Of a stretch of DNA of 32,000 nucleotides, positions 3,416 through 28,082 are shown in pieces (positions within the stretch are counted from its first letter, which is position 1; each line of letters starts with the position of its first letter). The position numbers and the translations under genes are program-made. Below the pieces are notes generated by a model. It did no database searches, was not told where the DNA came from, and was given only the letters and a program-made list of their open reading frames with translations. The stretch covers positions 5,777-37,776 of the forward strand of contig JACPLT010000022.1 of assembly GCA_016186365.1 (NCBI GenBank), given 5' to 3'. This stretch comes from Candidatus Pacearchaeota archaeon (lineage in GTDB: Archaea > Nanobdellota > Nanobdellia > Pacearchaeales > GW2011-AR1).

Positions 3416-3564
3416 GAAAAATGTATGAAGGGGGAGTTTATAAGAATTTATATTGTAAAATGAAAATAAAAAGGTTTAAAAATGCCTGAAAATTGGAAGA
3501 TAAGTCATTCACTACATCGTTGAATGCAATTTTCTTGCATTAGACGCATTATGTAGGAGACATA

Positions 3565-3648
3565 TTCAAAAATGCACGAAACAAACAGCATTTTTGAAAT
3601 CCAGAAAATCAGGGATTTTCTGGCTTTTAAACTCTGAAGAGATTTAAA
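3565..3648 (+). repeat. Hairpin cassette copy in the L1 operon leader: module A (3565-3598), module B (3601-3623), CTTTT, weak C-like hairpin (3629-3645)
   Basis: A is TTCAAAAATGC / loop ACGAAACAAACA / GCATTTTTGAA. B is CCAGAAAAT / CAGGG / ATTTTCTGG. The same modules recur at 18492, 26515 and 27891. Confidence 0.85.
3572..3637 (+). other. Leader uORF (21 codons, MHETNSIFEIQKIRDFLAFKL) ending 12 nt before the rpl1 ATG
   Basis: The ATG lies inside the 5' arm of hairpin A. The same frame is open in all four A-B copies. Confidence 0.45.
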
Positions 3649-4296
3649 ATGGAAAATAAAACTATACTAGAAGCTTTAAAAAAGCTGAGAGCGAATGAGA
3701 AAAGAAAATTTCCACAGACAGTGGACTTAATTATTAATCTGAAGAATTTTGATATAAAAAGAGAGAGTGTCAATTTATTCTTAAATCTGCCGCATAAAAT
3801 AAAGGAAATAAAAGTGGCAGCATTTCTTGATAAAAAAAGCGGGATTATTGACAGCATTACAAAGCCGGAATTTGAAAGGTATAAAGATAAAAGAGTTATT
3901 AAAAAGCTGGTTAAAAATTATGACTTTTTTATGGCTTCTGCATCATTAATGCCTGCAATTGCATCAGCCTTTGGAAGATATCTTGGAAGCGCTGGAAAAA
4001 TGCCATCTCCACAGCTAGGTATAATAAAAGAGGAGTTAGACAGCGAGATTAAGAAAGTTGTTGAAAAAATGGAAAAAACAATAAAAGTAAAGAGTAAAGA
4101 GCCAAGCTTAAAGTTCGCAATAGGCAATGAAAATATGAGAGATGAAGATATAGCTGAAAATATTATTCTTGCGTATAATACTATACTTAATAGTTTATCA
4201 AAGAAAAAAGAGAATATCAAGTCAATTATGCTAAAATTTACTATGACAAAACCGATAAAATTAGAAGACCAAAAAAATGAAGAGGTGAAAAAGTAA
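3649..4296 (+). CDS. rpl1: 50S ribosomal protein L1 (uL1)
   Basis: uL1-like sequence (FPQTVDLIINLK...) in the conserved archaeal position upstream of P0 and P1. Confidence 0.9.
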   Translation: MENKTILEALKKLRANEKRKFPQTVDLIINLKNFDIKRESVNLFLNLPHKIKEIKVAAFLDKKSGIIDSITKPEFERYKDKRVIKKLVKNYDFFMASASLMPAIASAFGRYLGSAGKMPSPQLGIIKEELDSEIKKVVEKMEKTIKVKSKEPSLKFAIGNENMRDEDIAENIILAYNTILNSLSKKKENIKSIMLKFTMTKPIKLEDQKNEEVKK

Positions 4297-4297
4297 G

Positions 4298-5131
4298 ATG
4301 AAAGGGAAAACTGAAAAAAAACAGAATAGAAAGAAGGAAATTCCAAAGAAAAAACTGGACAGCGTGACAAATATCGCCAAATTAATAAAAGAAAGCAGTT
4401 CTGTTGTTCTTGTTTCAATTAAAAACCTCCCGACAAGCCAGTTTCAGCTTATAAAGAAAAAATTAAGGGGAAAAGCAGTAGTTATTGTAGCTAAAAAAAA
4501 TATAATAAAAAAAGCGATTGATGATTCAAAAAAAATTTCAATTCAGGATTTGAAGAAATATCTAAAAGAAGATTTGGCAATAATGTTTTCACAGGAAAAT
4601 CCTTTTGAGCTGTCATCTATTTTGTCCAGAAATAAATCTATGGCAAAGGCAAAGGCAGGGCAGGAAGCTTCAGAAGACATTACTATTGAACCTGGGCCAA
4701 CAGACCTTGTTCCTGGGCCGATAATATCCGAACTTTCAGGATTAGGGCTAAAATTCATAATTGAAGACGGAAAAATTAGCATAAAAGACAAGAAAGTAAT
4801 AGTAAAAGCCAAGGAAAAGATAAGCGAGGGGGCGGCTAGCATCATGTCTAAACTCGATATGAAGCCCGTAGCAATAGGATTAGAGCCATTAGTGGCATTT
4901 GATGCTAAAGAGAATAAGATATATGAGAATATAAAGATTGATTCAGACAAAACATTAGAAGAATTAAAACAGGCGAATGCAAAGGCATTAGCATTTGCAG
5001 TAAAAATTGCCTATCCCTGCAAGGAAACCATAAGATTTATCCTTGGAAAGGCATTGAGCCATTATCAGGCATTGGGCAAGCTTATTAAAACAGAGAATAT
5101 TCCACAAGAAAATACAACGGAGGCAAAATAA
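4298..5131 (+). CDS. rplP0: 50S ribosomal stalk protein P0 (uL10), short form lacking the acidic C-terminal tail
   Basis: It has a uL10 N-domain and a TAAGATG junction after rpl1. It ends ...IPQENTTEAK, without the GLSALFG-type tail seen in P1. Confidence 0.88.
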   Translation: MKGKTEKKQNRKKEIPKKKLDSVTNIAKLIKESSSVVLVSIKNLPTSQFQLIKKKLRGKAVVIVAKKNIIKKAIDDSKKISIQDLKKYLKEDLAIMFSQENPFELSSILSRNKSMAKAKAGQEASEDITIEPGPTDLVPGPIISELSGLGLKFIIEDGKISIKDKKVIVKAKEKISEGAASIMSKLDMKPVAIGLEPLVAFDAKENKIYENIKIDSDKTLEELKQANAKALAFAVKIAYPCKETIRFILGKALSHYQALGKLIKTENIPQENTTEAK

Positions 5132-5416
5132 ATGGAATATGTATATGGCGCCTTGCTATTGCATAAATTAGGACAGCCAGTAAGTGAAGAAAACTTGAAG
5201 AAAGTTATAACTGCTGCTGGAAGCAGTGTTGATGAAGCTAAAGTGAAAGTTTTAGCTGCAAGCTTGAAAGATATAGATATAGGGAAAGAGCTTGAATCTG
5301 CAACACTCGCAGTAGCTGCTGGACCAAGTGCAAGTGCAGGAACAGAGAAGAAAGAAGAAAAGAAAGAAGAAAAAGCTGCTGAAGCTGCTGAAGGATTAAG
5401 CGCACTCTTCGGATAA
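5132..5416 (+). CDS. rpl12: 50S ribosomal stalk protein P1 (aL12)
   Basis: Starts MEYVYGALLLH, has a KKEEKKEEK hinge and the canonical C-terminus GLSALFG. The junction with P0 is TAAATG. Confidence 0.9.
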   Translation: MEYVYGALLLHKLGQPVSEENLKKVITAAGSSVDEAKVKVLAASLKDIDIGKELESATLAVAAGPSASAGTEKKEEKKEEKAAEAAEGLSALFG

Positions 5417-5563
5417 ATTTTTATTATTGTTTTAATCTGAAGAGTTCGTTTACTTAGTTGTGACATTAAGGTTTGATTTTATAAATAACTTAATTTTTGG
5501 AGATTACTAAGGTTCAATAATAATTTATTGCTAAGTTTTTACAAATGTCTTTGCATTATTTGG

Positions 5564-5614
5564 CTATAGAAAATTCTGTTAATTGGATTATATTTTCTGA
5601 AGAATTTTCTATAG
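5564..5614. repeat. Perfect 14-bp inverted repeat CTATAGAAAATTCT (5564-5577) / AGAATTTTCTATAG (5601-5614) with a 23-nt loop
   Basis: Read directly from the 357-nt non-coding gap after rpl12. Confidence 0.7.
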
Positions 5615-5773
5615 AGTATATTTTGGATAATATCTATTTTATAACAATGAGGATTTTAGACAACACTTTGTGAAAGCTGGCTCAGAAGAAGATGATTAAA
5701 GTATTCACGAGAAATTTGAAGGAATTGCTCAAGCCCGTAAAATATTAGAGGAACTTGTTAAAAGGAAATAAAA

Positions 5774-6106
5774 TTAAGTGCAAACAGAGGATTCTTTTAT
5801 TTCTAAAGGAGTATTTTTATTAACTAAACTCCAATCGAGCTTAATCAAATTTTTGACAAATTGGTTATTTAAATTAAGCTTAAAATAATCAGATTTGCCA
5901 ATTTTTCGAGTTTTGCAAATAATCCCAGACTTGACAAAATAACTAAAAAAAAGTTTCAAAGAATTATAGCTTACATTGCTTTCTCTTGCTATTTCAGTCA
6001 TAGGATAATCAAAAAAATGATTGTCTATGAGAAAATCTATAACTCTAAGTTGAGGAGTGTCCCCAAATTGCATGAGGAATAAACTCTTGTTTTCTTTTAT
6101 TTTCAT
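5774..6106 (-). CDS. Winged-helix DNA-binding protein / small transcriptional regulator (110 aa from ATG 6106; the track starts at GTG 6121)
   Basis: HTH-like core DYPMTEIARESNVSYNSLKLFFSYFVKSGII followed by a wing. The TATA (GATTTAAATA) first T lies 30 nt upstream of ATG 6106, consistent with a leaderless start. Confidence 0.55.
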   Translation of the reverse strand: MKIKENKSLFLMQFGDTPQLRVIDFLIDNHFFDYPMTEIARESNVSYNSLKLFFSYFVKSGIICKTRKIGKSDYFKLNLNNQFVKNLIKLDWSLVNKNTPLEIKESSVCT

Positions 6107-6124
6107 AGTATAACCATACACTAT

Positions 6125-6142
6125 GGGCTATTTAAATCTTTC
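6125..6142 (-). promoter_or_regulatory. BRE/TATA-like promoter AAAGATTTAAATAG for the wHTH gene
   Basis: It matches the recurring GAAAGATTTATA-type motif in this window and has the same 29-30 nt TATA-to-ATG spacing. Confidence 0.5.
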
Positions 6143-6183
6143 TTTAAATGAAATTTATGTTTCAATAATAGAAACATTTAAAA

Positions 6184-6465
6184 ATGCTAGAATTTTATAT
6201 TAATATGGTTTCAGATTTAGAAAAAGCTCAGGTGATATTTAAGCTTGCCAGAAAAGATAACTGGAATAATTGTTATGATAGGGTAGAACATTTTAAGAGA
6301 TTCCAAAATTTACAAGAAATACTAAAAGAGCTTTCTAAAAAATGCTGGATTATCATCCACAACAAAGGGAAATTTACAGGAATATCGCTTAATACCCAAT
6401 ACAAAAAAGAGATTACTGAGTTTGTTGAAAAAGAGATGCCTCACATAAAAGGGATGATTGAGTAG
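6184..6465 (+). CDS. Hypothetical protein (93 aa), divergent from the wHTH gene
   Basis: ORF with AAATTTATG TATA-like element whose first T lies 30 nt upstream of the ATG. Confidence 0.5.
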   Translation: MLEFYINMVSDLEKAQVIFKLARKDNWNNCYDRVEHFKRFQNLQEILKELSKKCWIIIHNKGKFTGISLNTQYKKEITEFVEKEMPHIKGMIE

Positions 6466-6493
6466 TATCCTAATTTTTTTCTTGAAAAATCAA

Positions 6494-6505
6494 AAGATAT
6501 AAAAG
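6494..6505 (+). promoter_or_regulatory. TATA box (AGATATAAAAGC) placing a start site at about 6527
   Basis: The first T of TATAAAA is at 6498. Adding 29 nt gives 6527, which is the first base of the upstream copy of ATGCCGACGTGGGA. Confidence 0.5.
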
Positions 6506-6534
6506 CTTTATTTCTTTAGTTTATTTATGCCGAC

Positions 6535-6609
6535 GTGGGATACAGGAAATAAATTTCCTGTCTGTTCAACTCTTACGAGATTGAACACAATGGCAAACCA
6601 TTGTCCCAC
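6535..6609 (+). ncRNA. 75-nt cloverleaf-shaped structured element: either a tRNA leader or a non-canonical intron, not a canonical tRNA
   Basis: Closing stem GTGGGA 6535-6540 / TCCCAC 6604-6609. Arms are ACAGGAAAT/ATTTCCTGT (6542-6561), TGTTCAA/TTGAACA (6563-6587) and CAATGG/CCATTG (6588-6603), with 0-1 nt linkers. Confidence 0.45.
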
Positions 6610-6622
6610 AAATATGGCATAT

Positions 6623-6719
6623 GCCGACGTGGGACAATGGTACTCCGCTTGCCTTGAGCTTTATAAAAAAGTAAGCAAGTTTCCTTCGGGATATCCCAGT
6701 TCGATTCTGGGCGTCGGCG
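6623..6719 (+). tRNA. tRNA-Ser (anticodon UGA) with a 15-nt intron at the canonical 37/38 position (about 6659-6673); CCA is not encoded
   Basis: Acceptor is GCCGACG (6623-6629) / CGTCGGC (6712-6718). Anticodon stem is CTTGC/GCAAG with loop C-U-UGA-G-A. The long variable arm has a UUCG loop (6680-6694), the T arm is CCCAG-TTCGATT-CTGGG, and the discriminator is G. Confidence 0.75.
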
Positions 6720-6815
6720 TTCGATATTGACTGAGCGAAGCGAAGTCAATCTTCTCTATAAATTAAAATGTGAATGCTGACCCCAGAATGGGCGTCGGCG
6801 TTCGATATTGACTGA
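6709..6815 (+). repeat. 26-nt direct repeat GGGCGTCGGCGTTCGATATTGACTGA (6709-6734 and 6790-6815) duplicating the tRNA 3' end plus trailer
   Basis: The two copies are exact and 81 nt apart. Between them lie hairpin ATTGACT/AGTCAAT (6725-6749) and a promoter-like GAGCGAAGC...CTCTATAAAT. Confidence 0.8.
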
Positions 6816-6845
6816 ATGAGGGAGGCGCGAAAGATTTAAAAAAAT

Positions 6846-7124
6846 TCATCCAAAAAGCCAGAATTTAATTTTGGAAAAAAAGCCTTTTTTTTCTGAAGGA
6901 AGGGTTAGTGGCTGGGATTCTAAAGTTATTTTTGGTCTTTCTTCCAGAATTGGAATTTCTTTTGCAAGCTGTTCGTTAGCTAATTTCATAGCTCTTTCAA
7001 CTTCAGAACGAGGATAACCTTGAGAGACAAGCGCCCATTTTAAAGAATCAGCAGTATATCCTTTTTTGAGGTTTTTTTTAATATAATTAACTCTCTCCTG
7101 AATATAATCTGTTTCTCTCAACAT
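6846..7124 (-). CDS. Hypothetical small protein (92 aa), 17 nt downstream of the 631-aa surface protein gene
   Basis: ORF with coding-like composition, probably co-transcribed with the upstream gene. A T-run follows the stop on the - strand. Confidence 0.55.
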   Translation of the reverse strand: MLRETDYIQERVNYIKKNLKKGYTADSLKWALVSQGYPRSEVERAMKLANEQLAKEIPILEERPKITLESQPLTLPSEKKGFFSKIKFWLFG

Positions 7125-7141: not shown

Positions 7142-9037
7142 TTAATAATATTTTTTGTAGATTAAATAAGCTGTGACAGCTAATACTACAATTACCAATA
7201 GAATTACTATAATCCAGGTGCTTAATGAAGAAGATTCCTGCTCAATCGTTTCTGTATCAGTACTTACTGGAGTTGAAGGGGTTTCTGGAGTAGTGGTTGA
7301 AGGGGTTTCTGAAGGGGCAGTAGTTGAAGGAACTGCAAGATGTATTGTTTTTATTGTGATGTCTGCCCTATTGTTTACTATTCCATTAAGCTTGACAGAT
7401 AAATCATAATAGCTGTCTGAATCAACATCAAATTTCTTTTCCTCTCCTGCATTAAATACTGCCTGTTGTGGTGTTGATGAAACATTGATTGTTACTGATG
7501 TTGCTGCAATGTCTACTACACCTACATAATGGTCTTCACTAGATATTTTTACTTTAATCCTTGAAGCCTCTCCTAATGCTTGAGTATATCCTGTTGCGAA
7601 TTGTGCATCTAAAGGAGAGTAGGTTGCTGTCCAGAATGAAGAAGCTGAACCGCCTCCGCCTGAAGCAGTAGTAGTGGATGTAACTGGAGTAATTCCAATA
7701 TCATAAGAGGTGCTGTTTGCAATAGCATTAACTGCATCTCTGCAGCTTATTTTCCAGCTATGCCCTCCTGCTGATAGAGAGCTAGCATTAATCGTATTTG
7801 TAGTGGTCAAATTAATGGCAGTAGCTGTAACAAAGACTGCGTTATCCCAGATTAGTGAGCAGTTTGAAACAGTAACATCGGTTACATTAAACATGAAATT
7901 AGCACTTACATCTGATGCTGCAGAAGGGGTAGGTGAAACAAGGGTAATAACTGGAGCGTTATTATCAATAGTGATTCTATAGGATACTGATCTATTAGTA
8001 TTATTCAAACTGTCATTTGAATAAACTGTGATATTGTAATCTCCATCAGGATAACGAGTAGCGTTAAAAAGCAGAGTTTGATTATAATAACCTGCAGCAG
8101 TTAAAAGTGTGGCATTAAAAAAGTCTGTTTGTACGCCTGATGAGGTATTAGTGATATTAAAGTAGACATTTGGGCTTACTGCGCTTAAAACATCAGTTAC
8201 ACTTACGTTTATTGTAAGATTTCCGCTATAATTGTTTCTATTAGCAGGAGTTACAAAAGAAACTGCGGGAGCAGTTGTATCTAAAATAGCTATTCTTGTA
8301 TTTGTTGAATTTTTAAGATTTCCTAAATTTTTTACACTAGCATTGTAAGAGTAGTTTCCACTTGGCAAGCCAGTCCAGTTAATAGAATAGTTTCCATCTG
8401 CAAGCGGAGCAGACAAAGTAAAAGTGGTAGTATTAACCTCTCCAGTAGTGTTATATAATCTAAAAGTGATATTTGTAGGATTAGCTTCTGTTATTGAAAC
8501 ATTAAAGTGAATTGCTGTTCTTTGGATAGGAGAGCTGCTGTTTGCAAGAGAGTTTGTGGAATTAGCAACCAGAGGGATAGTTGTATCATTTATAGTTACG
8601 GGAATATAAGATGAAAAATTCCCAGATTTATTTTGAACAGTTACAGTAATATTATATATTCCGGGAGTTGCTGTAGCATTTATCCAGAAATAAGCAAGAG
8701 AACTTCCATTAATAATAAATCCCCCTGTAGAAACGTTTATCCAGACTAAATCTTGAGTGGTATTAAAAAAAGAGGCAATTGAGCTATTTGTTCCATTTGA
8801 GTCTATAATGATTGTAAAATTAGATGGGAAGGTGATATTAACTCTAGTGATGTTTGCCCATTGTCCAGGGTCATCATTAGTTACAGTGATGTTATAATAT
8901 CTTCCTAAACTTTCATTAACATAAAAAGCAGAAGGAGAAGTTGAAAATGCACTGAAGACAAAATTTAAACTAATTACTGAGAATAAAATTACTGCAGATG
9001 CCAATATAAACTTGCTAGATAAATTATTTTTCACCAT
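7142..9037 (-). CDS. Secreted, C-terminally membrane-anchored surface protein with Ig-like repeats and very dense N-X-S/T sequons (S-layer/adhesin-like)
   Basis: It has an N-terminal signal-like MVKNNLSSKFILASAVILFSVISLNFVFSA and repeated D-T/N-T/N-A/I-P-x-V/I domain starts. A Thr/Pro linker, a TM helix and YKKYY follow at the C-terminus. It is a paralogue of 9113..12211. Confidence 0.8.
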   Translation of the reverse strand: MVKNNLSSKFILASAVILFSVISLNFVFSAFSTSPSAFYVNESLGRYYNITVTNDDPGQWANITRVNITFPSNFTIIIDSNGTNSSIASFFNTTQDLVWINVSTGGFIINGSSLAYFWINATATPGIYNITVTVQNKSGNFSSYIPVTINDTTIPLVANSTNSLANSSSPIQRTAIHFNVSITEANPTNITFRLYNTTGEVNTTTFTLSAPLADGNYSINWTGLPSGNYSYNASVKNLGNLKNSTNTRIAILDTTAPAVSFVTPANRNNYSGNLTINVSVTDVLSAVSPNVYFNITNTSSGVQTDFFNATLLTAAGYYNQTLLFNATRYPDGDYNITVYSNDSLNNTNRSVSYRITIDNNAPVITLVSPTPSAASDVSANFMFNVTDVTVSNCSLIWDNAVFVTATAINLTTTNTINASSLSAGGHSWKISCRDAVNAIANSTSYDIGITPVTSTTTASGGGGSASSFWTATYSPLDAQFATGYTQALGEASRIKVKISSEDHYVGVVDIAATSVTINVSSTPQQAVFNAGEEKKFDVDSDSYYDLSVKLNGIVNNRADITIKTIHLAVPSTTAPSETPSTTTPETPSTPVSTDTETIEQESSSLSTWIIVILLVIVVLAVTAYLIYKKYY

Positions 9038-9112: not shown

Positions 9113-12100
9113 TCAATTATACTTTTTGTAGATTAAATAAGCTGCGACAACCAATACTACAATTATTACTAAAATCAATGTAATCCACATGCTTAATGAA
9201 GATTTCTGTTCAATTGTTTCTACACTATCACTTACTGGAGTTGAAGGCGTTTCTGGAGTTTCTGCGGGTGTTGCAGGAGATTGAGGCATCAGTTCATTTA
9301 TTGTTTTTATTGTTAAATTTGCTTTGCTCAAAGAAATTGAATTTAACTTAACTGAAATATCATAATAATTATTTGAATCAACATCAAATTTCTTTTCCTC
9401 TCCAATATTAAATACTGCCTGTTGTGGTGTTGATGAAATGTTTATTGTTGCACTTGTATTTGTTAATGAAACAACACCTACATAATGGTCTTCACTAGAT
9501 ACTTTTATTTTTACTCTTGAAGCTTTTGCCAAAGTTTGAGTGTATCCTGATACAAACTGGCTGTCTATAGGAACATAAGTTGTTGCCCAGAATGAAACTG
9601 CCGAACCGCCTCCGCCTGAAGCAGTGGTAGTTGATGAGCTTGAAGGAGCGCTTCCTGAGACTCCTGGAGAGACACCCGAGAAGTGAGGTATTCTCATGTA
9701 TACCATATTTGAAGTGGTATTAATATAGCAAGGGGTAACATTAAGATTTGAATCGGTTTTACTGCAATTTATTCCTGATGAAGAAAGATAGTTTCGGTAT
9801 AATGCTGTAGAGTTATAATCTATAAAATCGTCAGTTAAATTTACAGAAGTATCTCCTCTTGACCTATTCCAAACAGCATTCCAGTTCTCATCGTATAACA
9901 TCGGAGTTGAAAGAGACATATCTGCAGAATCATTAATAGCAGCATCGTCAAAAGGCATGGCAATAACTACATAGCTATAAGCATCTTTAGGAGCAAAACT
10001 TCCGAATTGCCATACTTGATTTGTAGATGAAGCTCCGCTTGATGCCCGGTCATTCATTATGCTTTCCATTGGAGGCTGTTTAGCTGAAAACATATCAAAA
10101 TTCATGAACATTAAAGTTACTCCGGTACTTGTAATTTTCATCTCCATGTTTATTTTTCCAGCAACTAATGCTGTTAAAGGATTGAAATTTTTAGCAGAGG
10201 TATTTGTTATTACACAACTGTCTGCAGGGATTAAAACATTGCAAGCTTCAGAGTTTCTCAAGAATCTCATATTTATTGCGAGACTGGAATTCAATTGAGT
10301 GGAATTAATCATTTCCATCTGTCCTGTGGAATTAATTTTTTTCATTCCAACTCCTCTTCCATCTGACATAGTAGTCATAGTTATGTTAGCCTCTGATTGT
10401 GAGAGATTTAGAGTAACCTCTCTTGGAGGAGCATCATTGGAATATACCATTATTTTTGCCCAGTTGCTGTTATTTAGTATAGACATATAAAATGAGCCAG
10501 AACTCATACTTTCTATTATATAAGTGAGAGTTCCTGTAACTGGGTGTTTTATTCTTACATTTGCATTCATATTAGTTGTTATTGCTCCTCCTGATGAATT
10601 TACAATATTAATCTTAATCTTGCTGGTATTTACTCCGCTGGATGAATTGTAGTTTCCTGCTAACCTGAAAAGAGTAAGGTTATAATTCCTGTTTCCAGTA
10701 ATTGTAATGTTTTGAAAAGCTGCTAAACTCCAAGCATTTGCAGAATATACGTCAGGAGCAGCAGTTTTATTTTTAGCATAAGCTTCTATAAGATAGTTTA
10801 GCCCTGATGCAGAGCCCATTGCAGAAATGTTATAGAAAGCAAAGGCACATCCCAAAGATGAAGCAGTATAATTAATGTTTACATCTAAATCAATATCTCC
10901 CATGTCTGCCCTGAATGGGGGAACGAATCCAGGCCAAGGAATCATTTTCAAAGAGAAGCTAGTGATGTTTAATGCAGAGTTATTGGTTCCTGCAGACATA
11001 TTTATGCATCCAAATAATCTGTAAGTGTTAGTTACAAAGCTTTGATTTACAACTAATATCTGTCCTTGAGATAAGACACCTAAAGTTGAATTTGAAACAG
11101 GTGGAGTAGGGCAGGTAGTATCATTCATTAAACTTCCATTGCATAAACTGTGGAAAGTAAATCCAAAATTGCCATTTCCAGGGGTTCTTACAAACATGAC
11201 TGTAAAATTTCTGTCTATTGGAACAGCAATGTCAACAGTAGAAACACTAGTCATAAAATTACTTTCTGTTGGAAATCCTGAAACCTGATCAGTAACTTGA
11301 TAGCCAAATTTTTGTGCAGAGCCTGCAATTCCTTCGGACCAATTGTTAGCATATAATCTTAAAGTTGCTGCAGGTTGCATATAAAAACTTGTTCCATTTA
11401 GTGAAGGGGGTCTCATAAATTCAAAAATAGGAAGATCTGCAGTGGCTGGATAAAACATCATTGCAGGAAAATAAGGAAGACTAGTTCCTATTTTTGTAAC
11501 ATTGCAGGTTGAATTTGAGGAGATACATCCAGCAGCAAGCCCATATCTAATCATTTTTAACTTATAAAGTGAAGCAGAGCCATTAATATTTGGAAAAGTA
11601 AACTGCCCATTGGAATCTGATAGAATACTTGATTCATAAGATTCTGTTGGAGGACCTCCTGCTCCTGCGGCAACACGATACATTGAAACATTAACATTAG
11701 TTTCTGTTCCACCTGTTTCATTTTTAGTGTAACCTGAAAATGCGAAATCTACCCTGAAGTTATAAGAAGTAATATTGTCTGCTCCTGCAATGTGTTTAGC
11801 AGTCAGTGTAAAATTAGTAAACATCACATTTCCTAAATTTGCAAGAGAGATATTAAACAAAAAGCTCTGAACAGTATTATTTGGAAAAAATGTAAGTTGT
11901 GAAGTGTTTGTCCAGATTAATATTTTTTGTGGACCGGCAGTAGTATTTGTAAATACAGAATCGCCTGCTGTTGTTCTATTTGTATTAGCATAAAAAGTAG
12001 TTTCAAATGGGAGGGTGATAGTTAGTTGGGTGATATTAACATTGTCTGTATTGTTTAAAGTGATATTAACTCTTGTGTTGGATGTTCTGTTAAGATAAGA

Positions 12101-12211
12101 GGGAGTTACGGATTCAATAGTAAAAGCAAAAACAAAATTCAAACTGATTAAAAATGCTATAATTATAGTTGTTGCAAATATAAACTTGCTAGATAAATTA
12201 TTTTTCACCAT
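9113..12211 (-). CDS. Large secreted, membrane-anchored, sequon-rich surface protein (1032 aa), paralogue of 7142..9037
   Basis: Its first 11 residues are identical to the paralogue (MVKNNLSSKFI). It shares a C-terminal module of about 190 aa (ASGGGGSA.SFW...EDHYVGVV...SSTPQQAVFN.GEEKKFDVDS...), a TP linker, a TM helix and YKKYN. Confidence 0.8.
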   Translation of the reverse strand: MVKNNLSSKFIFATTIIIAFLISLNFVFAFTIESVTPSYLNRTSNTRVNITLNNTDNVNITQLTITLPFETTFYANTNRTTAGDSVFTNTTAGPQKILIWTNTSQLTFFPNNTVQSFLFNISLANLGNVMFTNFTLTAKHIAGADNITSYNFRVDFAFSGYTKNETGGTETNVNVSMYRVAAGAGGPPTESYESSILSDSNGQFTFPNINGSASLYKLKMIRYGLAAGCISSNSTCNVTKIGTSLPYFPAMMFYPATADLPIFEFMRPPSLNGTSFYMQPAATLRLYANNWSEGIAGSAQKFGYQVTDQVSGFPTESNFMTSVSTVDIAVPIDRNFTVMFVRTPGNGNFGFTFHSLCNGSLMNDTTCPTPPVSNSTLGVLSQGQILVVNQSFVTNTYRLFGCINMSAGTNNSALNITSFSLKMIPWPGFVPPFRADMGDIDLDVNINYTASSLGCAFAFYNISAMGSASGLNYLIEAYAKNKTAAPDVYSANAWSLAAFQNITITGNRNYNLTLFRLAGNYNSSSGVNTSKIKINIVNSSGGAITTNMNANVRIKHPVTGTLTYIIESMSSGSFYMSILNNSNWAKIMVYSNDAPPREVTLNLSQSEANITMTTMSDGRGVGMKKINSTGQMEMINSTQLNSSLAINMRFLRNSEACNVLIPADSCVITNTSAKNFNPLTALVAGKINMEMKITSTGVTLMFMNFDMFSAKQPPMESIMNDRASSGASSTNQVWQFGSFAPKDAYSYVVIAMPFDDAAINDSADMSLSTPMLYDENWNAVWNRSRGDTSVNLTDDFIDYNSTALYRNYLSSSGINCSKTDSNLNVTPCYINTTSNMVYMRIPHFSGVSPGVSGSAPSSSSTTTASGGGGSAVSFWATTYVPIDSQFVSGYTQTLAKASRVKIKVSSEDHYVGVVSLTNTSATINISSTPQQAVFNIGEEKKFDVDSNNYYDISVKLNSISLSKANLTIKTINELMPQSPATPAETPETPSTPVSDSVETIEQKSSLSMWITLILVIIVVLVVAAYLIYKKYN

Positions 12212-18453: not shown

Positions 18454-18591
18454 ATGACTAAAGAATTAAATAACCAACAGGAGAAAAACAGTTTAAATAT
18501 GCACGAAACAAATGGCATATTTAAAATCCGGAAAATTAAGAATTTTCCGGCTCTTTCGTTCCGGGGGAACTCAAGATGGGAAAGAGAATAA
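18454..18591 (+). other. Relay ORF (45 codons) from 3 nt after the rpl23 stop, running through modules A-B-C and ending 16 nt inside rpl2 in another frame
   Basis: MTKELNNQQEKNSLNMHETNGIFKIRKIKNFPALSFRGNSRWERE. Through the modules it uses the same frame as the other copies. Confidence 0.45.
18492..18575 (+). repeat. Hairpin cassette copy: A (18492-18525), B (18528-18550), C (18558-18570)
   Basis: A is TTTAAATATGC/GCATATTTAAA with loop ACGAAACAAATG. B is CCGGAAAAT/ATTTTCCGG, showing a compensatory A>G with T>C change relative to the other copies. C is GTTCC-GGG-GGAAC. Confidence 0.85.
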
Positions 18592-21127: not shown

Positions 21128-21310
21128 ATGGCAATAATAAAAAACAAAGAAATTAAAAATTTGCAGAAGAAGGACATAGAGGAAAAATTAAAAGAATTAA
21201 GAATGGAGTTGGTGAAGAAGAATGTAACTGCAAATAAATCCGGGAAAATAAAAACAAAAGAAATTAAAAAGGCAATTGCCAGAATACTCACACTGTTAAA
21301 CAAAAAATGA
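21128..21310 (+). CDS. rpl29: 50S ribosomal protein L29 (uL29)
   Basis: 60-aa helical protein in the conserved position after rps3. Confidence 0.85.
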
Positions 21311-21606
21311 ACATATGTCCAAAATGCGGTTTACCAGAGCAAGCATGTGTCTGTGCGGACATCGCAAAAGAAGAACAGAAAATAAGAATAGGGACAGTGA
21401 AAAGAAAGTTCGGAAAGATAACAACTGTTGTCGAGGGATTTGACAGCGGAATTGACATAAAGGAAATAGCCAAAAAGTTAAAAAACGAACTTGCCTGCGG
21501 AGGAACAGTAAAAAACAACTCCATAGAACTGCAGGGAGATCACACCAAGAAGATAAGACCTGCTTTGGTAAAGTACGGGTTCAGAGATGAACAAATAACT
21601 GAGTAA
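21307..21606 (+). CDS. Translation initiation factor aSUI1 (aIF1)
   Basis: N-terminal Cys cluster [13 protein letters not shown] and the SUI1 motif [22 protein letters not shown] overlap with rpl29. Confidence 0.85.
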
Positions 21607-21613
21607 AACAAAA

Positions 21614-21979
21614 ATGAAACAAGAAAAAAATGAAACAATAGTGGAAAGCAACAAAAACAGCTGTAATGATAGCCAGTGCAATATTCATTCTGGGTTAAAA
21701 GTCAGAGGAAGAACATTTGACGGCTATGTTACTAAGAAGTTTAACAGAAGAGTTGTAATTGAATTTGAAAAAATAGTTTATATCAAGAAATATGAAAGAT
21801 ATACAAAGAGAAAAACAAAGCTTCATGCGAGAGTTCCATCTTGTGTTCAGGAAAAAGTTAAAGTTGGGGATTATGTCAAGGTAGGAGAGTGCAGACCATT
21901 AAGCAAGATTATTCATTTTGTATTTTTAGAAAAAATAAGAGATGCTGACAAGAAAAATAATGAAGGAGATTTGAAATGA
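21614..21979 (+). CDS. rps17: 30S ribosomal protein S17 (uS17)
   Basis: CNDSQCNIH...RGRTF N-terminus and VGDYVKVGECRPLSK. Confidence 0.85.
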   Translation: MKQEKNETIVESNKNSCNDSQCNIHSGLKVRGRTFDGYVTKKFNRRVVIEFEKIVYIKKYERYTKRKTKLHARVPSCVQEKVKVGDYVKVGECRPLSKIIHFVFLEKIRDADKKNNEGDLK

Positions 21980-23952: not shown

Positions 23953-24053
23953 AAAAACTTAAAAGTTTTTACCTATTAAATTTCAGGAGAAATTTAAGAT
24001 CCAGAAAATCTGATGATTTTCTGGCTTTTGATTTCCGGGGGAAATCAAAATGA
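23949..24053 (+). other. Relay ORF (34 codons, [34 protein letters not shown]) bridging rpl5 and rps14
   Basis: ATGA overlaps at both ends (23949-23952 and 24050-24053). Confidence 0.5.
23953..24049 (+). repeat. Hairpin cassette copy in permuted order: D (23953-23970), C' (23979-23994), B (24001-24024), C (24030-24046)
   Basis: D is AAAAACTT-AA-AAGTTTTT. C' is AATTTC-AGGA-GAAATT. B is CCAGAAAAT-CTGATG-ATTTTCTGG. C is GATTTCC-GGG-GGAAATC. Confidence 0.85.
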
Positions 24054-24280
24054 CTGCAAGCGACTGGAAGAAGATTACGAAACAGCTTAGAAATAAGAAA
24101 GCAAAACTAAGCAAATTCCTAAGACATAATAAACCGAAAGATAGAAAAACAGGAATAGCAAAATATAAATGTGAAAGATGCGGAAGGTTTGGGGCGCATA
24201 TTTCTTCATATAATCTAAATTTATGCAGACAATGCTTCAGAGAGATAGCTGAAGAAATTGGATTTAAAAAATACAGCTAG
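24050..24280 (+). CDS. rps14: 30S ribosomal protein S14 (uS14), zinc-binding type
   Basis: CERCGR...CRQCFRE (two CxxC pairs). Confidence 0.85.
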
Positions 24281-26482: not shown

Positions 26483-26599
26483 ATGATAAATAATGAATTA
26501 AATTTTGAGAGAAGTTCAGAAATGCACGAGGCAAATAGCATTTCTGAAATCCAGAAAATCGGGGATTTTCTGGCTTTTAAAAATCTGAGGATTTATTAA
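26483..26599 (+). other. Relay ORF (38 codons, MINNELNFERSSEMHEANSISEIQKIGDFLAFKNLRIY) spanning the rpl18-rps5 spacer
   Basis: It starts 1 nt after the rpl18 TAA and its own TAA ends 1 nt before the rps5 ATG (TAAAATG at both ends). Confidence 0.45.
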
Positions 26600-26600
26600 A
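26515..26600 (+). repeat. Hairpin cassette copy: A (26515-26548), B (26551-26573), SD-loop hairpin AAATC-TGAG-GATTT (26581-26594)
   Basis: A is TTCAGAAATGC/GCATTTCTGAA with loop ACGAGGCAAATA. B is CCAGAAAAT-CGGGG-ATTTTCTGG. Confidence 0.85.
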
Positions 26601-27305
26601 ATGGCAGAAGAACGCAGAGATAGAAGAAGAGACAACAGAAACCCAAGAGAATCAAGATATGGGAGAAAGAGAGAAGAGCCAGAGCCAAAGCCATGGGTGC
26701 CTAAGACAAAGATAGGAAAACTTGTGAAAGAGGGCAAAGAAAAAGATATAGACAAAGTTATAAAAGAGTATAAGATACTTGAGCCAGAAATTATAGATAA
26801 TTTGATAGAAGTTAAATCCGATTTATTAAGCATAGGACAATCAAAAGGAAAATTTGGCGGAGGAAAAAGAAGGGTATGGAGACAGACGCAGAGAAAAACT
26901 GCAGAAGGAAATGTTCCTACATTTGCCTGCTTGTCTGTTGTTGGCGACGAGAACGGGCATGTCGGCATGGGTTATGGAAAAGCCAAAGAGACACCTCCTG
27001 CCAGAGAAAAATCACTAAGAAATGCCAAACTAAATGTTTTTGCTGTGAAGAGAGGATGCGCAAGTTTTGACTGCTCATGCAACGAGTTCCATTCAATTCC
27101 TATGAAAGTTGAAGGAAAGTGCGGAAGCGTAAGAATCATTTTGATTCCTGCACCTCAAGGGACAGGATTAGTTATAGGGGACGAGTGCAAGAAAATTTTA
27201 AGACTGGCAGGAATAAAAGATATTTACAGCAAAAGATTCGGACAATCAAGAACTACAATAAATTATGCCAAGGCGTGCATTGATGCCTTGAAGAAGCTAA
27301 AATGA
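26601..27305 (+). CDS. rps5: 30S ribosomal protein S5 (uS5)
   Basis: Archaeal-type basic N-terminus, GKFGGGKRRVWRQTQRKT, and uS5 domains. Confidence 0.9.
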   Translation: MAEERRDRRRDNRNPRESRYGRKREEPEPKPWVPKTKIGKLVKEGKEKDIDKVIKEYKILEPEIIDNLIEVKSDLLSIGQSKGKFGGGKRRVWRQTQRKTAEGNVPTFACLSVVGDENGHVGMGYGKAKETPPAREKSLRNAKLNVFAVKRGCASFDCSCNEFHSIPMKVEGKCGSVRIILIPAPQGTGLVIGDECKKILRLAGIKDIYSKRFGQSRTTINYAKACIDALKKLK

Positions 27306-27724: not shown

Positions 27725-28029
27725 GGAAAAAAGGATTTATAGACAACTGCGCCGCAGCTTGCATTACATCTTTTTCGCAGTTCTCTATCTGTCTAACTGT
27801 ACTAAATTGTCATCTAACCAATGCAGTTATCCATAACAATAGGAGATTTGACAGCAAAAATTCATGCTTGGATAGTATGAATTTAGGCTGCTCAGAAATG
27901 CACGAAACAAATAGCATTTTTGAGACTTCAAGAACTTCAGTTCTTGATAGTTCTCAGAAATTAAAAATTTCTGAAATCCAGAAAATCGGGGATTTTCTGG
28001 CTTTTGATTTCCGGGGGAAATCAAAATGA
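27721..28029 (+). other. 102-codon relay ORF filling most of the rpl30-rpl15 spacer (not a conventional protein gene)
   Basis: Its ATG overlaps the rpl30 TGA (ATGA). Its last 44 codons (MHETNS...) run through hairpin modules A, A2, A3, B and C, and its TGA overlaps the next ATG. Confidence 0.45.
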
Positions 28030-28078: not shown

Positions 28079-28082
28079 ATGA
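28026..28082 (+). other. Relay ORF (18 codons, MKKTNEFFASLNFRRNLR), the last link before rpl15
   Basis: ATGA overlaps at both ends (28026-28029 and 28079-28082). Confidence 0.45.

Follow-up and report, generated by a model that had tools for sequence, protein, structure and literature searches.

An intact tRNA-Ser(UGA) gene of a Candidatus Pacearchaeota archaeon is preceded by a probable promoter-bearing stump of its own 5' end, which probably forms part of a structured leader

The tRNA locus described here lies in a 32,000-nt stretch of the genome of a Candidatus Pacearchaeota archaeon (GenBank assembly GCA_016186365.1, contig JACPLT010000022.1, positions 5,777 to 37,776 of the forward strand); this stretch is referred to as the window, and its first nucleotide is position 1. 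The window is part of an AT-rich archaeal contig (G+C content of about 33%) and comprises the L1-P0-P1 ribosomal-protein operon (3649-5416) and a large ribosomal-protein/SecY cluster (16.4-30 kb), with SecY having its best named relatives, at 72-78% identity, in metagenome-assembled genomes of Candidatus Pacearchaeota and 'Nanoarchaeota archaeon'. Between these gene clusters, the forward strand carries an intact gene for tRNA-Ser(UGA), whose variable arm is long (6623-6719), and, upstream of it, a second, partial copy of its 5' end, which is the subject of this study and which we read as the probable stump of an earlier version of the gene. The sequence of the tRNA locus is the same in two independent assemblies, and therefore an assembly artifact is ruled out. 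The organism is represented in the metagenomes SRR12113424 and SRR12113420.

The Rfam tRNA model matches 6623-6719 with 43.8 bits and an insert in the anticodon loop. In intron-less orthologs (about 80 orthologs of the gene were found) the anticodon loop reads CTTGAGA, and hence the anticodon is UGA, a 15-nt intron occupies 6659-6673 at position 37/38, and the gene, which also has the long variable arm, is typed as tRNA-Ser(UGA). The same intron was recovered in a scan for bulge-helix-bulge (BHB) splicing motifs (central helix H with 3 of 4 pairs and one mismatch; outer helix of 6 bp). Both the serine identity of the gene and its canonical 37/38 intron had been recognized in the initial annotation, which was made from the sequence alone. 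The gene was overlooked by ARAGORN in default mode and by both whole-window Rfam scans; in intron mode (6622-6720) ARAGORN, which had been proposed as a check, detected the gene, misplaced the intron at 35/36 and typed the product as tRNA-Thr(UGU). Stumps and long introns of this sort defeat the standard finders, and tRNA lists compiled automatically for such genomes probably have gaps or wrong types.

An exact 15-nt direct repeat (TATGCCGACGTGGGA) is located at 6526-6540 and 6620-6634 on the forward strand, the intact tRNA starting inside the second copy; the repeat had been noticed before, with a length of 14 nt. It is far beyond chance: its 12-nt core (GCCGACGTGGGA) has exact matches at these two sites only in the 32 kb, and shuffled sequences yield 0.2 matches even with 2 mismatches permitted. 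Within the first copy, 6529-6540 correspond to tRNA nt 1-12. This 5' piece is followed by 48 nt forming two hairpins, H1 (6542-6561; ACAGGAAAT / ATTTCCTGT) and H2 (6563-6587; 10 bp, one bulged A, loop TTAC), then by CAATGG (6588-6593), a remnant of tRNA nt 13-18 that also provides the 5' arm of a third hairpin, H3, then by a CAAA loop and by ACCATTGTCCCAC (6597-6609), the antisense of tRNA nt 7-19. The stump is, in short, tRNA nt 1-12 and 13-18 split by a 48-nt module and followed by antisense sequence. The antisense segment is a perfect 13-nt inverted repeat which supplies the 3' arm of H3 and one strand of a closing stem, and it can base-pair either with the stump or, in the real tRNA, with 6629-6641. 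A linker (6610-6622), in which UGGCAU (6615-6620) pairs with AUGCCG (6527-6532) and so closes the leader domain, leads to the first nucleotide of the intact gene. The antisense segment, the remnant of nt 13-18 and a 27-nt duplicate of the tRNA 3' end described below add to what was known of the locus.

Relatives were collected by one scan of GTDB genomes and one scan of JGI/ENA metagenomes with tRNA-specific words, which gave about 80 loci (designated below by L numbers). Most of them are syntenic, with L1-P0-P1 followed by tRNA-Ser(UGA) and then by a conserved gene of 92 aa in the opposite orientation; a search for further loci through homologs of the 92-aa neighbor returned distant relatives with other tRNAs, and nothing informative. 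A promoter weight matrix was built from 73 unique related tRNA-Ser loci, in which the consensus is TTTAWAAR at -31 to -24 and TAW at -3 to -1 relative to tRNA G+1, and in which the spacing is strictly fixed over -36 to -1, with box A at -31/-30 and T-A-W just 5' of G+1. Three of four other Pacearchaeota tRNA genes present within these loci show the same promoter register. The best score of the matrix in the 32-kb window (15.6) falls on +1 = 6529, which is G1 of the upstream copy, with the box A/TATA element (TATAAAAG) of this tRNA-type promoter, designated promoter P1, at 6498-6505 on the forward strand. For the intact copy (+1 = 6623) the score is -13.0, which equals background and lies below that of every normal locus. 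The predicted start is, accordingly, upstream of the intact cloverleaf, and none is predicted at 6623. The initial annotation had already seen that the TATA box at 6498 is in register with the upstream copy, with a start at about 6527, and that no TATA box stands at the right distance from the second copy, an argument which the matrix confirms quantitatively.

About 25 of 88 loci carry additional copies of the tRNA 5' or 3' end, without exception on the strand of the tRNA. Copies of the 5' end were seen upstream of the gene in L012, L017/L060, L058, L079 (two copies), L008/L011, L035, and L083. The architecture of the window (type 1: promoter, nt 1-12, H1, H2, nt 13 onward) recurs in L012, L017/L060, L058, and L079, and a second type of stump, with its breakpoint at nt 16/17, is present in L008/L011 and L035, as well as in L083, where it lies upstream of a LAGLIDADG open reading frame (ORF). 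The intact copy has no promoter in the window, L058, L079, L008, and L035; in L012, L017, and L060 a second in-register promoter (scores 9-11) directly precedes the intact tRNA. The tRNA-derived tract of the stump extends to nt 24-25 in L012, L079, and L017, with L012 and L079 reading CAATGGTACTCC, equivalent to tRNA nt 13-24 there, in place of CAATGG. Because this tract is longer in the relatives and is interrupted by the module, the 15-nt repeat is to be regarded as the residue of a partial gene duplication and not as a target-site duplication. The antisense stretch is present in L017/L060 and L058, degenerate in L012, and absent in L079; since the closing (antisense) pairing of L058 is kept by two G-U wobbles, the structure appears to be one of RNA on the tRNA strand.

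The two hairpins show covariation across the five homologs: 95.8% of cells pair, 8 of 19 pairs are changed on both sides (5 of 9 in H1, across 5 lineages, and 3 of 10 in H2, which also has one U-G wobble, in L012), and none of 500 shuffles reaches these values. On this comparative evidence, H1 and H2 are real and maintained by compensatory change. The distribution of the element is patchy; P0 proteins of the window and L017 are about 50% identical, and closer relatives of each carry no element. Clean loss through recombination between the repeats, or horizontal spread, would explain this pattern.

The arrangement might be taken for a tRNA with a non-canonical intron in the acceptor/D-arm region, as the initial annotation had proposed among other readings. 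The transcript would start at 6529, the 94 nt between equivalent points of the repeat would be spliced out, and the mature 5' end would come from the upstream copy. The promoter in register with the upstream copy, with none for the intact one, fits this proposal, as do the minimum-energy fold of the precursor, in which the upstream copy has the 3' acceptor strand as its partner, the perfect conservation of stump nt 1-12 in all promoter-less alleles, and the leaderless promoter geometry of the lineage, which resembles that of Nanoarchaeum equitans. The proposal was examined by encoding BHB geometry (4-bp central helix, 3-nt bulges cut after the second base, flanking helices) and scanning 6500-6830. 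No BHB with at least 3 of 4 central pairs and flanking helices that would restore the tRNA on excision of 94 nt was found at any junction pair in the window, and none, strict or relaxed, at tRNA-restoring junctions in L058, L079, L008, L035, L012, and L017, whereas the same scan recovers the canonical 37/38 intron. Manual and scripted searches for excision of 94, 81 or 48 nt in the window, and for the corresponding excisions in the six related loci, gave the canonical intron only, and the 48-nt two-hairpin insert alone contains no BHB, in keeping with the earlier failure to find one by eye. With both splice sites placed within the repeat, a self-complementary sequence would be required for the 4-bp central helix; only ACGU is so strictly, and CGUG reaches 4 of 4 pairs with G-U pairs, neither being accompanied by flanking helices. 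Moreover, the 3' junction of a 94-nt excision falls in a perfect 13-bp helix or in an ordinary acceptor stem.

The relatives speak against splicing as well. An interrupted gene of this kind would be one gene with a constrained 5' exon and no promoter on its 3' part; instead, the intact copy is served by a promoter of its own in L012, L017, and L060, the upstream copies of L012 and L083 carry U8C and G4C, respectively, and L079 has two stumps in series. The two changes are incompatible with a working tRNA, and the stumps are not under tRNA constraint. A split or permuted tRNA does not describe the locus either, since the downstream tRNA is complete and the antisense segment forms perfect helices without bulges. 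An intron in this position is therefore very improbable.

The 48-nt H1-H2 module is not confined to the tRNA locus. A covariance model of it (R1) has five further matches in the window, all on the forward strand and supported by folds, and more in L058 and L059. Four of these modules end at a start codon, namely those of L1 (3594-3652, start codon 3649; 40.3 bits, E 1e-8, with a third hairpin, H0, ahead), L2 (18521-18579, start codon 18576), S14 (23994-24056, start codon 24050), and the gene starting at 26601 (26544-26604); the fifth (27971-28029) lies upstream of a mini-ORF and a gene at 28079. Most copies stand in two- or three-hairpin arrays of near-perfect hairpins (H0-H1-H2; 3565-3652, 18495-18579, 23975-24056, 26515-26604, and 27955-28029), which in the cases of L1, L2, S14, and the gene at 26601 finish exactly at the ATG. 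In the arrays, H1 has the conserved sequence CCAGAAAAT / ATTTTCTGG, and the loop or 3' arm of H2 contains purine-rich, Shine-Dalgarno-like bases. No Rfam family matched the arrays at permissive thresholds (3480-3680). In relatives, most orthologous sites are without the arrays; for the L1 leader this holds in about 20 of them, whereas the window and L059 carry an insertion of about 85 nt at this place. Directly before the L1 ATG, about half of the relatives compared have a conserved stem, CUACAU...(hairpin)...AUGUAGGAGA, which is found at about 3520-3562 in the window and may be an autoregulatory mimic of the L1 site of 23S rRNA. That the CAATGG following H2 at the tRNA locus is merely the AATGG start-codon context of the ribosomal-protein copies was considered and rejected, as L012 and L079 go on with TACTCC, which corresponds to tRNA nt 19-24.

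The module is thus a dispersed hairpin repeat, multi-copy and present or absent at orthologous sites, and this bears on the proposal that the whole 79-nt insert is a small mobile element resembling a miniature inverted-repeat transposable element (MITE), with the repeat as its target-site duplication. Such an element would account for an insert between exact direct repeats, for the insertion-polymorphic hairpin family to which its 48-nt core belongs, and for the patchy distribution among relatives. A copy search for the 80-nt element, suggested in the initial annotation, gave a divided answer, as a 29-nt core probed from the insert (6542-6570) has no other near-identical copy and R1 finds the two-hairpin core only. 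The rest of the insert is derived from the tRNA (nt 13-18 and antisense of nt 7-19), the tract reaching nt 24-25 in the relatives and interrupted by the module leaves no fixed duplication length, and module copies show no consistent duplication at their ends. What holds of the earlier idea of a mobile insertion is accordingly the dispersed core; the duplication of 14 nt as a target site does not, and neither a MITE nor an insertion sequence (IS) with target-site duplication matches a locus where only 48 nt recur and the tract length varies between lineages. We consider a mobile element in this sense quite improbable. Likewise, the '75-nt cloverleaf' seen earlier is a composite, in which two stems of tRNA-derived sequence and its antisense surround one copy of a dispersed repeat, even though its closed four-way junction stands.

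That junction is the predicted fold of the leader alone (6527-6622, 94-96 nt; -38.6 kcal/mol). It comprises an outer stem (6527-6532/6615-6620) and a closing stem (6535-6540/6604-6609), both of them anticipated, the former as an ATGCC/GGCAT pairing, and three arms, which had been given as perfect helices of 9, 7, and 6 bp. H3 does have 6 bp (6588-6593/6598-6603) and H1 has 9-nt arms separated by 2 nt, but H1 folds as 8 bp with a 4-nt loop, and H2 has its 10 bp and bulged A. In leaders without a second promoter, stump nt 1-4 and 7-12 (nt 4-12 in the short type) are predicted to be paired, and nt 1-6 of the stump are predicted to be free in L017 and L012, so that the five leaders lacking a second promoter show more predicted stump pairing than the two that possess one. 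Each leader was compared with 200 shuffles of the rest of its sequence; the observed stump pairing was reached by 7 of 200 shuffles in the window, 14 in L079, and 6 in L008, and no enrichment over shuffles was seen in L017 or L012. These predictions are at most suggestive of a leader that hides the stump.

A conserved fold behind a strong promoter also invites the reading that promoter P1 drives a separate small RNA, either an antisense or decoy RNA directed at the tRNA or a regulator related to the ribosomal-protein leader hairpins, with the tRNA expressed by read-through or from a cryptic promoter. At least 4 of the 5 type-1 lineages have a strong promoter of their own there (the L079 stump at -80 scores -1.4), compensatory changes and G-U wobbles support the structure on this strand only, conservation spans lineages with P0 about 50% identical, the 13-nt antisense to the tRNA D-arm is perfect, and the module is shared with the hairpin arrays before ribosomal-protein genes. 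On the other hand, the element is present in only about 10% of related loci, there is no terminator between it and the tRNA, and its 3' part is variable and partly decayed, the antisense being degenerate or absent in the two lineages named above. No Rfam family was matched; at permissive thresholds, 6400-6900 returned the tRNA alone, with no ribozyme or known leader family, and inspection by eye for C/D-box, H/ACA, and hammerhead motifs revealed no conserved boxes across the five homologs. Such an RNA seems to us unlikely.

The locus could finally be a dying one, its rearranged gene not properly expressed while another tRNA-Ser(UGA) copy elsewhere does the work. The intact copy lacks a promoter, a misfold of the precursor is predicted, and tRNA fragments lie on both sides of the gene. 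The tRNA body is, however, intact at 43.8 bits, in each of five independent lineages an intact copy without a promoter persists behind a stump, and the site is the conserved syntenic tRNA-Ser(UGA) site of the clade. Duplicate tRNA genes are, in addition, uncommon in such small genomes, and decay of this kind is decidedly unlikely.

The fragments on the 3' side of the gene extend the picture beyond the leader. The last 12 nt of the tRNA and 15 nt of trailer form the first copy (6708-6734) of an exact 27-nt repeat, the second copy of which (6789-6815) starts 81 nt further downstream and belongs to a 3' stump (6776-6815, forward strand; GCTGAC-CCCA-GAA-TGGG-C-GTCGGC-G). Here, a near-complementary pseudo-5' strand (GCTGAC-CCCA) stands ahead of the repeat, giving a hairpin (6776-6800) that resembles an acceptor/T-arm minihelix. 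A trailer hairpin (ATTGACT / AGTCAAT), followed by a pyrimidine run, is predicted at 6726-6750 and is possibly a terminator or processing signal. Downstream 3' copies are also found in L004, L023, L024, L029, L031, L042, L045, L048, L050, L077, L080, and L008/L011 (at 66-117 nt in L004, L024, L029, L042, L048, L050, and L077), and the DNA enclosed by tRNA 3'-end copies measures between 54 nt and 2.7 kb, with toxin-antitoxin-like pairs and further small genes among its content. Small cassettes between copies of the tRNA ends lie at +83 to +726 in L008/L011, +163 to +812 in L080, and -863 to -219 in L079; their genes include those for a YoeB/ParE-like toxin and its winged-helix partner, for a DUF2283 pair, and for a peptidase S51.

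Two comparisons show how such loci change. L017 and L060 are 99.9% identical over 7 kb; what distinguishes them lies, on either side, precisely outside the unit bounded by the first base of the stump and the last base of the tRNA. In L022, the sequence at -100 to -53, upstream of the promoter of an intron-less tRNA-Ser gene, is homologous to the 37/38 intron of L014 (score 58 versus a shuffle maximum of 30), and it is the remnant of an older, intron-bearing gene copy. The tRNA-Ser(UGA) gene is a two-sided rearrangement hot spot at which older versions leave stumps, with direct repeats of the tRNA end around inserted DNA and with polymorphic relatives (L017/L060, L021/L076).

On the 5' side, an ORF with a LAGLIDADG_3 domain (39 bits; cut-off 22.5) occupies -566 to 0 relative to tRNA +1 in seven loci (L083, L021, L025, L045, L069, L073, and L061). 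The tRNA promoter (TTTAAATAA) lies inside its C-terminal 'YQL.LNK' codons, and the frame continues into the tRNA (MPTWDNGT...). In L083 the cassette is preceded by the original promoter and a decayed stump (GCCCACGTGGGACAATAG) with its breakpoint at nt 16/17, and L021 and L076 share the upstream promoter and are, respectively, with and without the endonuclease cassette. Invasion by the homing-endonuclease gene, repair, and later loss are a plausible source of 5' stumps. No recombinase or endonuclease gene is present in the window. Scans of viral contigs with the 5' end in interrupted and in intact form, as well as with the 3' end, returned no matches or chance matches in unrelated phage ORFs, and a viral attachment site is therefore unsupported.

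Taken together, we consider the most probable reading, at roughly 0.6, to be that the upstream copy is the stump of an earlier tRNA-Ser(UGA) 5' end together with its original promoter, and that the intact tRNA is now produced through a 94-nt structured leader trimmed by RNase P. Cassettes, including the LAGLIDADG gene, would insert at the tRNA 5' end and others at its 3' end, leaving direct repeats; one such event would have duplicated the promoter and roughly tRNA nt 1-25. The hairpin repeat would have invaded the stump, which would now be the first part of the leader. Because the window lineage has no second promoter, transcription is expected to start at G6529 and to yield a pre-tRNA with a 94-nt leader. 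Being transcribed first, the closed leader would be favored co-transcriptionally; it is predicted, with modest support, to bury most of the acceptor strand of the stump and to leave the real tRNA free to fold. RNase P would then cut at 6622/6623, and the splicing endonuclease would remove the 37/38 intron (6659-6673). A structured 5' leader removed by RNase P had been one of the original proposals; the promoter register and the closed leader fold agree with it as a present-day consequence of the rearrangement, with cleavage by RNase P as a presumed step.

Several observations weigh against this reading. The fold of the whole precursor favors a misfold (-79.2 kcal/mol, compared with about -70.7 kcal/mol for leader plus cloverleaf, as predicted), a structure whose acceptor stem is made by the stump and in which the real D-arm is engaged by the antisense segment. 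The signal for sequestration of the stump is modest, the observed pairing being reached by 32 of 200 shuffles in L035 and 40 of 200 in L058. Stump nt 1-12 are unexpectedly well conserved, particularly in the promoter-less alleles. The query used for metagenomes needed an uninterrupted 5' 20-mer, so that genes with solely an interrupted 5' end would be undetectable, which biases the sample against an intron; a query able to catch such ends would be R1, or GCCGACGTGGGATACAG combined with the tRNA 3' half. Comparison of the leader with the 3' end of the endonuclease cassette gave no significant similarity, a marginal promoter-box match in L012 being the sole one, and a link between the window stump and homing-endonuclease activity would be by analogy with the loci described above.

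The remaining objections concern RNase P itself. Whole-window Rfam scans gave no match to RNase P RNA in the 32 kb. In many archaea, the Rpp29 gene is located between SUI1 and S17; in the window (21128-21979) the order is L29, SUI1, S17 with an 8-nt gap and no Rpp29, which we take as a weak hint. The promoter geometry is that of the leaderless tRNA genes of N. equitans, which is free of RNase P, and this sits awkwardly with a 94-nt leader. Pacearchaeota and Nanoarchaeum belong to one GTDB phylum, and N. equitans is, to our knowledge, the only RNase P-free organism. In the surveyed archaeal genomes, ribonucleoprotein subunits of RNase P were found throughout, and no HARP was found in DPANN (PMC6380272). 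A different outcome, which we regard as unlikely, is that Pacearchaeota transcribe their tRNAs leaderless and have little RNase P or none at all; alleles in which the intact copy has no promoter (window, L058, L079, L008, and L035) would then need an undescribed route to the tRNA 5' end, such as cleavage directed by the closed leader junction of stump and antisense, or BHB-less excision. Another reading, likewise unlikely, is that the stump arrangement is a selected immunity allele, which would destroy the promoter-tRNA junction recognized by the LAGLIDADG endonuclease that invades the gene, with the tRNA still expressed.

The surroundings of the locus show some further features. Between the ribosomal protein P1 gene and the tRNA promoter, about 1.1 kb (5417-6490) contain two orphan ORFs, at 5774-6121 on the reverse strand and 6184-6465 on the forward strand, the former possibly winged-helix-like by eye and without a Pfam match; in some relatives (e.g., L070 and L074) the corresponding gap measures just about 100 nt. 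A search close to the P1 gene for another tRNA stump bracketing this 1.1-kb insertion gave none. Downstream, two adjacent large proteins of secreted type (7142-9037 and 9113-12211, reverse strand) have N- and C-terminal segments in common (37% and 64-69% identity), and a Big_3_3 Ig-like domain is present in one of them; the two resemble a tandem pair of paralogous surface proteins.

If the stump-and-leader reading is right, an essential tRNA gene of single-copy type can, even in a reduced DPANN genome, become separated from its promoter and persist in this state in several lineages. It would also yield a concrete prediction on 5' processing, by RNase P or otherwise, in a clade with N. equitans-like tRNA promoters, and would present a Pacearchaeota tRNA gene as a hot spot of recombination on both sides, where the tRNA promoter is fused with a homing-endonuclease gene. 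This bears on the long-standing idea that links disruption of tRNA genes with their targeting by mobile elements.

Among known systems, non-canonical BHB introns and split or permuted tRNAs (Thermoproteales, Nanoarchaeum, Caldivirga, Desulfurococcales; PMC3218864) share with the locus an interruption in the D-arm, a promoter-bearing 5' piece, and adjoining complementary sequence; here, in contrast, no BHB stands at a usable junction, nothing is missing from the downstream gene, and the 5' piece, which is redundant, decays in some lineages. The 48-nt module resembles repetitive extragenic palindromes and MITE-like hairpin repeats in being short, palindromic, multi-copy, intergenic, and present or absent at orthologous sites, whereas its copies mostly end exactly at ribosomal-protein start codons in two- or three-hairpin arrays and show neither a transposase link nor target duplication. 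The leaderless tRNA genes of N. equitans were reportedly described by Randau and colleagues in 2008 under the title 'Life without RNase P'. They have box A (TTTAAA) about 26 nt before the start (PMC3491384, an RNA-seq study), a purine at +1, and the same arrangement is found in 73 related loci and in the stump; unlike them, the intact tRNA of the window is displaced 94 nt downstream of the start point, which implies a long leader. LAGLIDADG homing endonuclease genes, known as free-standing or borne by introns, are represented by the ORF that abuts the tRNA at a fixed position in seven related loci, and L083, where it is flanked by the duplicated promoter and nt 1-16, is as expected if an insertion splits and then restores its target; the window has no such gene and no detectable remnant of one in the leader.

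The closest likeness is to archaeal integration footprints. Partial tRNA copies at archaeal tRNA genes have been attributed to the integration of mobile elements or to rearrangement (She et al., 2001/2002; Reiter et al., 1989; as cited in Chan, Cozen and Lowe, 2011, PMC3218864). In common with these footprints, direct repeats of tRNA ends stand beside an intact tRNA, the flanking content varies between strains, and the related loci carry repeat-bracketed cassettes with toxin-antitoxin-like pairs, with a gene for peptidase S51, and with a LAGLIDADG gene. The present locus differs in that only 79 nt lie between the repeats, with no recombinase gene in the window, that the 5' end and promoter are involved, so that the working gene is left promoter-less, and that the stump was invaded by a hairpin repeat and is followed by antisense sequence in an architecture conserved across divergent lineages. 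The stump arrangement is a variant of the already known tRNA-gene fragment footprints.

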